Part shown: positions 1,413-4,746 of the stretch, one piece after another
Layout of the letters: every line of letters starts with the position of its first letter
Position numbering within the stretch: position 1 is the first letter of the stretch
Source: Candidatus Dormiibacterota bacterium
Lineage (GTDB): Bacteria > Chloroflexota > Dormibacteria > CF-121
Direction: 5' to 3'
DNA: 64,000 bases
NCBI GenBank assembly: GCA_036564925.1
Contig: DATCOB010000082.1
Span: forward strand, 149-64,148
Position numbers and translations under genes: made by a program
The notes under the pieces: generated by a model
Databases searched by the model: none
What the model was told of the DNA's origin: nothing
The model's input: only the letters and a program-made list of their open reading frames with translations

Positions 1413-1874
1413 GTGCCGCGTGAAGATCCGCCGGCCGGTTCCCGGCGAGAAGTGTCGGCGGGCGGTGTCGTCTTCCGGCAGGGTGCGGGCGGCCCTGAGT
1501 TCGCACTGATCAAAGCCAACGGGCGATGGGTGTTCCCCAAGGGTGTCATGGAGAAAGGCGAGACGCCGGAGGTGACTGCCCTTCGCGAGATCTCCGAGGA
1601 GACTGGTCTTCCACTTGGCGACCTGCGGATCGCGCGGCCGTTGCCGCCCATCGACTATGCCTTTCGCTGGCGAGGGCAACTGGTATTCAAGACCGTCCAC
1701 AATTACCTGGTCGAACTGCGGGGTGAGGCTCCCCTCCGGCCCCAGCTGTCCGAGGTGGAAGAGGCGCAATGGTTTCCGCCGGCACAGGCGCGCCGGGTGC
1801 TCGGCTTTAAGAACGCGCGGCTGACCCTGGATGCGGCGATTGCGGCGGTGGACACGCCCGTGGTCACCTCGTGA
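1413..1874 (+). CDS. NUDIX hydrolase (Ap4A-hydrolase-like)
   Basis: SAGGVV plus Nudix box GVMEKGETPEVTALREISEETG. Confidence 0.9.
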   Translation: MPREDPPAGSRREVSAGGVVFRQGAGGPEFALIKANGRWVFPKGVMEKGETPEVTALREISEETGLPLGDLRIARPLPPIDYAFRWRGQLVFKTVHNYLVELRGEAPLRPQLSEVEEAQWFPPAQARRVLGFKNARLTLDAAIAAVDTPVVTS

Positions 1875-2245
1875 GTGTCATCCTCCTCGTGCACCAGCGG
1901 CTGGCCCTTGCCGGCATCCTGATCACGCTCATCATCGGCCTCTGGGGTCTTATCACCTACCTCAGGAGGGCTCCCGCCAGCAGTGGCTATCGCTCCACGC
2001 TGGTCATGACCGAAGTCCTGTTTTTGGCTCAGGCCGTGGCCGGGATCGCGCTCTTCGTCTTCGGTGGGAAGCGCCCGCACGATGGGCTTCACGTGCTGTA
2101 CGGAGTCCTCCTGGTGATCGCCCTACCGATCGGTGCCAGCTACACCTCCGGGCGGGAACCGCGCCGGGAACCGCTCGTCTACGGGCTGGTTGGGCTCTTC
2201 ATGGTCGGGCTCACCATCCGTGCCATTACGACCGGAGGCGCCTAA
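1871..2245 (+). CDS. Hypothetical 4-TM membrane protein
   Basis: Four hydrophobic segments; GTGA overlap with the NUDIX stop. Confidence 0.75.
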   Translation: MSVILLVHQRLALAGILITLIIGLWGLITYLRRAPASSGYRSTLVMTEVLFLAQAVAGIALFVFGGKRPHDGLHVLYGVLLVIALPIGASYTSGREPRREPLVYGLVGLFMVGLTIRAITTGGA

Positions 2246-2249
2246 AAAC

Positions 2250-2279
2250 GGAAAGAGAGGGCTTGCGCCCTCTCTTTCC
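2250..2279 (-). terminator. Intrinsic terminator (possibly bidirectional)
   Basis: Perfect 13-bp stem GGAAAGAGAGGGC/GCCCTCTCTTTCC. On the minus strand the loop is GCAA and the stem is followed by GTTTTT. Confidence 0.85.
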
Positions 2280-2291
2280 AAAGCCCGCTGA

Positions 2292-2351
2292 CTAGCGGCT
2301 CTTCCGGGTCGCTTTCTTGGCCTTCTTCGTGGCCTTCTTCGTGGTCGCCAT
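2292..2351 (-). CDS. 19-aa Lys-rich small protein MATTKKATKKAKKATRKSR
   Basis: ATG...TAG preceded by TAAGGAGGTGA (2355-2365) and followed by the terminator. Too short for the ORF track. Confidence 0.7.
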   Translation of the reverse strand: MATTKKATKKAKKATRKSR

Positions 2352-2461
2352 GCGTCACCTCCTTATCGCGTGAGCGGCAAACCGCTTGCGCACCTGACGA
2401 TGTGCGCTCATCCGAGATAACGGCGCGTCCAAAACGAACTTGCAGATTTCTTGCGGCCTCG

Positions 2462-3439
2462 TTAGAAGAGGCGGAGTTGATCAACGGCCCCAAGTGGTTT
2501 CGCCCGCAGCCCCCGCCGGCGCAGGTGCATAGCGAGCTCTTCATCGAATCCCAACACCGTGTAGGTCATCGCGGCGCCGACCTGCTCCGCATAACAACAG
2601 AGCTCCTCGAAGTCGGCGTGGTCGGAAAGAGGAAAGACCGCGTCCACAGCGAGGCGATCCTTCAGGCTCCGGTCCATCGCCCAGCCGGTGAGCGCCGCCG
2701 TTTTGAATTCACCGAAGCCCGTGAGCCCGCCGCGGCGTCGTGCGGAGGGTGGGGCGATCACGACGCTGGGGCCGCCCCCTGCCTGATCCAGGCGACGGTA
2801 GGCGGGAAAGGTGCACCCGAGCTCTCGATACACGTCCGTCACCGAGAACAACGCGGGGTGAAGGGCGATCGTCAGCCCTTGTGTGGCGAGCGCGCTAAGG
2901 ATCTCCTGTCCCTTCCCCAGCGAATAGCCGAGCAGGACCGGGGTCCGGCCGCCGTCCAGGACGTCCCAACACCAGGCGATCATGGCTGCCACCACTTCAG
3001 CGGCATCTGGAAAACGGTAGTGCGGCTTTCCGAAGGTGCTCTCCAGCACCAGCACGTCGGCGGGAACTCGCTCGGCCGGTGCGCTGGTAAATCCCTGGCG
3101 GATCTTCAGGTCTCCCGTATAGAGGACACGCCCGAAGCTTGTCTCGACCAGGGTTTGCGCCGAGCCAAGCACGTGACCTGCGGAATAGAAGGTCAACCGG
3201 CAGGTGTCGAGGTCGAGGGATTGCCCATAGGGAATAGCCTCAACCGTGCCGCCGGAGGGCCGTCGATGCGTGACCAGGCGCCGGGTGGCGGGCGTGGCAT
3301 AAGCCAGTGGGTGGGCCGCGACGTGATCGGAGTGCGCGTGGCTGATGACGGCCCGGGGCCGCGGTCGCTTTGGGTCCAACCAGAGTCGTTGCTGCGGAAG
3401 GAAGACACCACTGTCCCATAGGATCGGATATGAGTGCAC
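2462..3439 (-). CDS. MBL-fold/beta-CASP nuclease (ligase-associated DNA damage response exonuclease-like)
   Basis: SHAHSDH, AGHVLGSA, YTGD, ESTFG, GYSLGKGQ and LSDHAD motifs. Confidence 0.88.
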   Translation of the reverse strand: MHSYPILWDSGVFLPQQRLWLDPKRPRPRAVISHAHSDHVAAHPLAYATPATRRLVTHRRPSGGTVEAIPYGQSLDLDTCRLTFYSAGHVLGSAQTLVETSFGRVLYTGDLKIRQGFTSAPAERVPADVLVLESTFGKPHYRFPDAAEVVAAMIAWCWDVLDGGRTPVLLGYSLGKGQEILSALATQGLTIALHPALFSVTDVYRELGCTFPAYRRLDQAGGGPSVVIAPPSARRRGGLTGFGEFKTAALTGWAMDRSLKDRLAVDAVFPLSDHADFEELCCYAEQVGAAMTYTVLGFDEELAMHLRRRGLRAKPLGAVDQLRLF

Positions 3440-4734: not shown

Positions 4735-4746
4735 GAACATTTGTTC
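4735..4746. promoter_or_regulatory. LexA (SOS/Cheo-type) operator GAACATTTGTTC
   Basis: Perfect GAAC-N4-GTTC palindrome abutting a TATTGT -10 (4729-4734, minus strand) in front of a DNA-repair-family gene. Confidence 0.8.

Follow-up and report, generated by a model that had tools for sequence, protein, structure and literature searches.

The 64,000-nucleotide window (the whole stretch of Candidatus Dormiibacterota DNA that was analysed) carries on its minus strand a micro-gene of 19 codons and a TAG stop (2292..2351), encoding the peptide MATTKKATKKAKKATRKSR, which frame conservation, pN/pS and metagenomic copies confirm as a real gene under protein-level selection. Judged by sequence likeness, it is a member of a widespread class of stand-alone polylysine micro-genes and not an isolated oddity.

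The micro-gene and its neighbourhood

The micro-gene reads from an ATG at 2351 to a TAG at 2294-2292, and a spacer of 3 nt separates its start from the Shine-Dalgarno (SD) sequence TAAGGAGGTGA (2355..2365, minus strand), an 11-mer with a single occurrence in the 2.31-Mb genome and a predicted duplex energy with the 16S tail of about -16.8 kcal/mol. The sequence-only reading, an earlier inspection of this DNA, had seen a perfect anti-SD match here; the 11-mer is indeed present, but the match comprises 10 nt (AAGGAGGTGA) and not 11, because the 16S 3' tail of the family ends in ...GATCACCTCCTTTA, as read from 8 full 16S genes of family relatives (the assembly of this genome is without 16S). The peptide is as it had been described, with 9 basic residues among 19 (7 K and 2 R, besides 4 A and 4 T) and ACGAAGAAGGCC twice in tandem (2342-2319); it has a pI of 12.0 and a GRAVY of -1.62, a hydrophobic segment is absent, and its lysine fraction is the top one among 224 short SD-led ATG ORFs. 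Equally, the GNRA-capped intrinsic terminator (2244..2279, minus strand) is present with a 13-bp stem (2279-2250), a GCAA loop and a U5 tract (2248-2244), recovered by the terminator scan and by folding (z = -5.0, 200 shuffles) as well as in relatives, where the stem differs widely in sequence and its pairing is kept. The complete transcription unit that had been placed at 2250..2365 is self-contained as claimed, but its leader and promoter, which reach to about 2445, had been missed. Gene callers skip the micro-gene, as had been supposed: it is absent from protein collections, and of 7 related peptides, 20-27 aa in length, not one is found in a collection of 15 billion proteins, the 19-mer itself lying below the 20-aa minimum.

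Upstream on the same strand lies a gene of the metallo-beta-lactamase (MBL) fold resembling the ligase-associated DNA-damage exonuclease (2462..3439; TIGR04122 with 228 bits, below the cut-off of 325), and downstream there is a convergent gene for a hydrophobic, probably membrane, protein without family match (1871..2245, plus strand), whose stop is overlapped by the terminator. The order radical SAM, hypothetical, MBL-fold nuclease, micro-gene and convergent membrane gene is found in 11 of 12 genomes. In one genome (G012) the unit from promoter to terminator is inverted as a block against its neighbours, and since the promoter is inverted along with it, the micro-gene is independent of them. 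A GAAC-N4-GTTC box, which we take to be LexA-like, is situated at 4735-4746, just before the radical SAM gene (4719-3823), and the exact box is found in 7 of 12 relatives, which suggests an SOS-controlled unit of radical SAM, hypothetical and exonuclease genes whose read-through could end at the micro-gene terminator.

Conservation and coding selection

The locus was recovered by DNA search in 23 of 24 other genomes of the family, the missing one being 83% complete, and by pattern search the micro-gene is present in all 23 family genomes that are at least 85% complete. A phylum-wide pattern search (2 of 301) was left out of account, as its pattern excluded codon 4 of this genome. The frame is kept in each of the 24 family loci from the DNA search, the genome of the window included. 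Among 23 gap-free copies, pN/pS is 0.18 in the micro-gene frame versus 0.59-3.57 (about 3.6) in the other five, the variable columns are distributed over codon positions 1, 2 and 3 as 3, 2 and 9, and the stop codon is TAG in 12 and TAA in 11 copies; the 24th copy carries a +3 insertion, the sole indel. A conservation search with a synonymous-site test had been proposed as a check on the sequence-only reading, and these loci, with low pN/pS in this frame only, bear the gene out. Metagenomic sampling gave at least 120 matches, selected on exact leader and start and therefore biased for that part; among the matches listed there are 101 distinct complete contexts, 2 truncated ones and, for the remainder, duplicates. 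The encoded peptide is 19 aa long in 100 of these 101 contexts and 20 aa long in 1, with neither a frameshift nor an early stop. Two unpublished genomes, G003 and G004, are included in the counts, and the conclusions are independent of both.

Public records with the same leader and peptide are labelled mostly as Candidatus Dormiibacterota or Chloroflexi, and the few that carry other depositor labels may be misbinned or relabelled. In a genome of another family (f3), a gene and leader of the type found in the family of the window (f1) are encoded on a 4-kb contig (L074, G465:C41), possibly by misbinning or transfer.

Promoter and candidate sigma regulon

The leader is preceded by two boxes on the minus strand, a -35-like CTGCAAG (2439..2445) at conserved spacing from a -10-like CGTTAT (2417..2422), the latter being invariant in 34 aligned leaders and recurring as part of a motif elsewhere in the genome. 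Together they form GCAAG-N16-CGTTAT, probably a promoter of the alternative-sigma type. GCAA and CGTTAT are separated by 17 nt in 40 of 41 genome contexts and, among the metagenomic matches listed, in 88 of 90 scorable contexts (11 more are too short), although the sequence of the spacer is variable. In five genomes of the family, GCAA-N17-CGTTAY yields 59 matches, 5 of which are the micro-gene itself, versus 21 for reversed-pattern controls; in five genomes of other families the corresponding numbers are 10 and 8. GCAAG..CGTTA occurs 7 times at this spacing, as compared to 0-3 times at ten other spacings. Where matches were inspected (30 of 59), the motif is mostly located 5-17 nt before the starts of recurring genes, namely those for two TPR proteins, a Cache-HAMP histidine kinase and proteins of no assigned function, and in single cases before genes for a CAAX protease, a GGDEF protein, a STAS protein and a response regulator, with an LPG-synthase gene further downstream. 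Such short distances imply leaderless transcripts, and for the micro-gene itself they would put the transcription start near 2411.

CGTTAT might also have been conserved as an anti-SD strand, since in read-through transcripts the predicted SD accessibility is lowered (0.33 versus 0.52; 38 of 41). A promoter is nevertheless favoured because of the fixed spacing and the recurrence before genes without SD. Like ECF-type promoters, an assignment that we presume from -10 consensus types with 'CGT', this one has two conserved boxes a fixed distance apart and recurs upstream of a group of genes. We consider the family-enriched motif to mark a candidate sigma regulon of mostly leaderless genes. The genome has 22 matches to sigma-70 region 2, and at none of 20 loci inspected is the motif situated directly upstream of the sigma gene on its own strand. 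GCAAG-N16-CGTTAY is present at 2417-2445 of the window and, in the same genome (G000), on C8, C25, C48, C50, C60, C81, C101 and C105. Two metagenomic copies (L404, L481) are devoid of the promoter through apparent internal deletions, which may be assembly artefacts.

Leader and mRNA folding

The whole 168-nt transcript is predicted to be structured (z = -3.6). At the 5' side of the leader, hairpin P1 pairs GCGCAC with GTGCGC around a variable loop (2388..2407, minus strand), with 92.7% of cells paired and 2 of 6 pairs changed on both sides; the support from covariation is modest, since slid controls score similarly. Further downstream, a start-codon helix (2343..2383, minus strand) is predicted between the leader segment GGU-xy-GCCGCUCAC and GUGACGC-AU-GGC-z-ACC, in which the nearly invariant 3' half of the leader would pair with the stretch from the end of the SD across the spacer to codon 3, AAGGAG being looped. 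This helix is predicted with P>0.5 in 85 of 91 distinct transcripts, the contexts for folding having been picked by a pattern that requires part of the leader. All 21 distinct variants are compatible with the pairing, including changes at codon 2, in the loop and in the spacer, and the helix end is kept in the minimum free energy structure of 19 of them; of three TTT/GCA variants, 2 come from the unpublished genomes G003 and G004. An alternative hairpin P2, GCGG-UUYG-CCGC (2374..2385, minus strand), excludes the start-codon helix and would free the start, so that it is a candidate for the open state, with a mean predicted probability at equilibrium of 0.02; as the main fold of the leader it was ruled out once the coding region was folded along. 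Opening of the ribosome-binding site is predicted to cost on average 10.6 kcal/mol (n=60) versus 9.5 for 118 crude control starts in this genome of 66% GC, and since both values are close, it is conservation that speaks for gating, not an unusual stability.

Within the frame, a GGCC/GGCC hairpin is predicted between codons 6-7 and 10-11 (2319..2334, minus strand), with P>0.5 in 94 of 103 contexts, and these codons are invariant in 100 metagenomic copies among the matches listed. Another hairpin spans the stop codon (2282..2301, minus strand; predicted P>0.5 in 91 of 103 contexts). Such hairpins fix several codons and explain part of the low synonymous divergence of the micro-gene (pS of 0.26, as compared with 0.44 for HU and 0.62 for the upstream gene). 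Structure and low pS would both be expected if the RNA, as a structured small RNA or a ribosome-binding decoy, were the main product and the frame were kept only for translatability. This seems quite improbable, given the excess of third-position variation (9 versus 3 and 2), the exchange of stop codons and an only indel of +3, and given that other lineages encode similar peptides behind unrelated leaders. Moreover, no Rfam match near the gathering score was obtained for the micro-gene locus, 14 related loci and 5 paralogue loci.

Even less credence can be given to a lysine-sensing attenuator peptide, a type I toxin or a chance ORF, readings that are largely excluded. Runs of Lys codons followed by a terminator are reminiscent of an attenuator, but in each of the 12 family neighbourhoods the downstream gene has the convergent orientation, so that there is no gene to attenuate. 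A leader-masked start codon is typical of type I toxin mRNAs, and masking of the ribosome-binding site is predicted in the same 85 of 91 transcripts, with an opening cost near that of control genes; the hydrophilic peptide, however, offers no hydrophobic segment. A chance ORF is excluded by the conservation in 24 family loci, by pN/pS and by the metagenomic copies.

A paralogue and a wider class of polylysine micro-genes

No family had been recognised for the peptide, and for Pfam and NCBIfam this holds: six related peptides of 20-27 aa gave no Pfam match at E<=10 (the 19-mer being too short and low complexity limiting such searches), and in NCBIfam only sub-threshold matches to Rv3852 were obtained, with two f3 peptides. 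Yet the micro-gene is one of a widespread class, and its own genome carries a paralogue. This second polylysine micro-gene (G000:C8 51199-51270, L250:3700-3771, minus strand) starts with TTG, encodes 23 aa with a C-terminal KKSSKKK, and has a strong SD and a hairpin after the stop. It is present in 18 of 18 family genomes behind its own nearly invariant long-hairpin leader of about 110 nt, for which neither an Rfam match nor compensatory pairs were found. The leaders of both micro-genes share CGCTCACGCG, a 10-mer that occurs 10 times in the genome. Upstream of the paralogue there is a long ORF, by eye similar to class II ribonucleotide reductases. In another genome, the leader and start of the paralogue occur once more (L259 about 1061-1210, G010:C14) and are followed by sequence that is not lysine-rich, which we read as a duplicated leader that may drive a different or decayed ORF.

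In family f3, polylysine versions of 21-28 aa are encoded, often two or three per genome, and many of them are preceded by a TTGAC-type promoter and a conserved leader, about 250 nt long. For this leader (L056:1515-1764, minus strand; 30 related loci), 4 of 50 predicted pairs are changed on both sides and a match in Rfam is absent; it might constitute a new cis-regulatory RNA. Paralogues are found behind diverged f3 leaders, and some genomes have tandem duplications of whole units.

A pattern scan of species genomes gave at least 119 matches, and 105 of those listed are stop-terminated ORFs of 45 aa or less. Among 109 listed matches of 52 aa or less, 55 have a Dormibacteria-type leader and 54 are without it; within the same list a terminator-like hairpin then follows in 54 of the 55 versus 30 of the 54. 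The 80 titled matches include Acidobacteriota, Planctomycetota, Methylomirabilota, Rokubacteria, Patescibacteria, Nitrospirota, Acidimicrobiia and an archaeon. Members of the class range from 14 to about 50 aa, with several copies per genome and tandem duplications of units. In the literature searched, mostly without subscription papers, nothing describing stand-alone polylysine micro-genes was found.

The MAKKK/MATKK start is also encountered as the N-terminal tail of longer proteins (L170, L128, L187, L097, L180 and L055), and by eye we take L170 to resemble a bacterial histone fold and L128 and L187 to resemble SWIB-domain proteins. Other proteins with such tails resemble, by eye, VOC proteins and a coiled-coil protein. 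In a viral collection, the 4 pattern matches are all N-termini of longer proteins.

Distribution relative to HU

Across five Dormibacteria families, polylysine micro-gene patterns, which can miss variants, are present in f1 (23/23, 18/18) and f3 (29/90, 53/75) and absent from f2 (0/65, 0/47), f5 (0/32, 0/24) and f4. HU is near-canonical in f2 (31/31, the unpublished G322 included) and f5 (19/19), divergent in f1 (34-45 bits), where the only HU/IHF match of the family is located at G000:C43 (L253:1480-1830), and it was not found in 51 of 53 f3 and 5 of 5 f4 genomes searched; with the genome's own HU as query, nothing convincing was obtained in 5 f3/f4 genomes. Thus, micro-gene patterns occur where HU is divergent or was not found (f1 and most of f3), a weak complementarity that represents very few independent events because only five families are involved. 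Family f4 has neither HU nor the micro-gene pattern (0/7, 0/5), and many f3 genera are without the pattern. We had considered that the micro-gene might be a split-off HU tail, an idea that was rejected; since the f1 HU keeps a short basic tail and the f2 and f5 tails are modest, only weak complementarity is claimed.

Possible functions of the peptide

Hydrophilic and with a charge of about +9, the peptide most plausibly binds a polyanion, and the nucleoid-condensing or ribosome-associated function that the sequence-only reading had suggested seems plausible. Our favoured, though tentative, reading is that of a conditionally expressed, dose-limited polycation which compacts DNA like a histone H1 tail. 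A monocistronic gene of about 168 nt would be transcribed from GCAAG-N16-CGTTAT by an alternative, presumably ECF-type, sigma factor, and in its mRNA, a predicted chain of hairpins, the folded leader would cover the start codon together with the 3' end of the 10-nt SD. Output would be set by the start-codon helix against 30S binding, possibly via a transient P2 during transcription. The product, probably of 18 residues after removal of Met, would be a disordered Lys/Ala/Thr/Arg polycation acting like a free C-terminal segment of histone H1, neutralising the phosphate backbone and helping in chromosome compaction or protection whenever the sigma factor is activated.

DNA as the partner is supported by the MAKKK/MATKK tails of histone-fold-like (L170) and SWIB-like (L128, L187) proteins and by the occurrence of micro-gene patterns in families with divergent or unfound HU. 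Support also comes from K/A repeats elsewhere: the S/T-A/T-A-K-K pentapeptide repeats of Streptomyces DdbA condense DNA (PMC3643593), and KPAA peptides of AlgP bind DNA (PMC9239181). A bulk charge function fits a class that varies in length and copy number and has tandem duplications. However, the micro-gene itself shows a fixed length of 19-20 aa and few substitutions, which is more in keeping with a specific site than with bulk charge, even if RNA structure accounts for some of this constancy. On an alpha-helical wheel the nine basic residues all lie within the same half (p about 0.01 by permutation). This signal was noticed post hoc, it weakens to p about 0.035 for Arg4, a common variant, and of 53 other peptides of the class only 5 show it at p<0.05; a strict helix is also hard to reconcile with the Pro or Gly that some relatives have at position 8. 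The other genes sharing the promoter, i.e., those for TPR proteins, the sensor kinase and the membrane protease, do not point to chromatin.

The fixed length and near-invariant sequence across the family would suit an RNA- or ribosome-binding factor, either a translation modulator like the PhaF tail or an accessory or hibernation-type ribosomal peptide, for which the structured leader would be an autoregulatory binding site. A strong SD together with a structured leader resembles the autoregulation of ribosomal proteins, and CGCTCACGCG is shared by the strongly conserved leaders of both paralogues. The precedent is the C-terminal KPAA region of PhaF, which in isolation binds leaders, that is, mRNA upstream of the SD, and activates translation (PMC12818456). 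Given this precedent and the fixed length, such a factor is a close rival; we rate it as possible but doubtful. The peptide has no KPAA, members of the class vary freely in length, related peptides match no Pfam, NCBIfam or PDB ribosomal chain, bS22 and bS21 are separate genes, and the micro-gene lies outside ribosomal operons behind a non-housekeeping promoter.

A third polyanion to be considered is polyphosphate, for which the peptide might serve as counter-ion in granules or similar condensates. The lysine-rich tail of AlgP is required for the spacing of polyP granules (PMC9239181), and the genome encodes PPK1, a weak support because PPK1 is common (7 of 14 control genomes). As none of the 12 neighbourhoods inspected links the micro-gene to ppk, this function appears improbable.

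On a wider scale, stand-alone polylysine micro-genes of many phyla might encode bacterial chromatin proteins (or proteins that coat RNA) of a class so far overlooked, with a small multigene family in Dormibacteria that took over compaction from a diverged or lost HU, which we think unlikely. If true, the Dormibacteria members would differ in promoters and structured, dose-limiting leaders, the 19-codon gene being the member switched on within a family-specific sigma regulon, and a possibly abundant class of nucleic-acid-binding proteins would be absent from annotation and from trypsin proteomics. For an uncultured soil lineage associated with dormancy, the promoter motif outlines a candidate sigma regulon. 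As the peptide is cheap to synthesise, DNA, RNA, ribosome or polyphosphate as its partner is directly testable.

Comparison with known systems

Among small ribosomal proteins, bS22 (in the mS38/eL41 pocket), bTHX and SRA are 20-45 aa long, highly positive and often missed by annotation. They are like the micro-gene product in size and charge, but there is no sequence match. Identity with bS22 is excluded by a separate bS22-like gene for 31 aa with a TTG start (G000:C70 from 1477 onward, L252:1278-1370, plus strand; PF08213, 40 bits), and bS21 is likewise encoded elsewhere; with no family or ribosomal-chain match, known small ribosomal proteins were rejected as the identity of the peptide. Thx was not found in the genome (92% complete), so that its pocket is formally open.

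A comparison of a 20-aa orthologue with the PDB gave only histone H3 tail peptides at a non-significant E of 2.9-6.5, and an f3 peptide gave no match; as no SET domain was found in the genome either, mimicry of the H3 tail was discarded. SASPs of Bacillus and ScvA of Coxiella are small, monocistronic, driven by an alternative sigma factor or stage-specific, and equipped with a strong SD and a terminator. An α/β-type SASP was rejected, since there is no sequence likeness and no PF00269 match among related peptides or in the genome. ScvA is described as specific for the small cell variant (PMC6759588), and Dormibacteria may form spores, which the authors call unproven (10.1101/647651). A role of the micro-gene in dormancy might be considered by analogy only.

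Lysine-rich disordered segments that bind polyanions are also found in the tails of PhaF and AlgP from Pseudomonas. In these, KPAA is repeated at least 22 times and attached to a folded domain, whereas the micro-gene peptide is without KPAA and proline is absent in most relatives. With the N-terminus of DdbA, the C-terminal tails of HupS and HupB, and with chlamydial Hc1 and Hc2, the peptide has in common K/A/T low complexity and KK-spaced repeats, and its Lys/Ala-rich basic composition is that of H1-like sequences. The regions of DdbA, HupS and HupB, however, are domains of about 90 aa or more, and Hc1 and Hc2 are proteins of over 100 aa. In contrast, the micro-gene has a start, a stop and a terminator of its own at every family locus and encodes a stand-alone peptide of 19-20 aa, without a long repeat or a fused DNA-binding domain and without a profile match to Hc1, Hc2 or another described family. 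We infer that it may work like an H1 tail while belonging to none of the described H1-like, ribosomal or SASP families. Bacterial H1-like tails are known as parts of larger proteins, and the micro-gene would provide a free version of 19 residues with its own promoter and a putatively gated leader.
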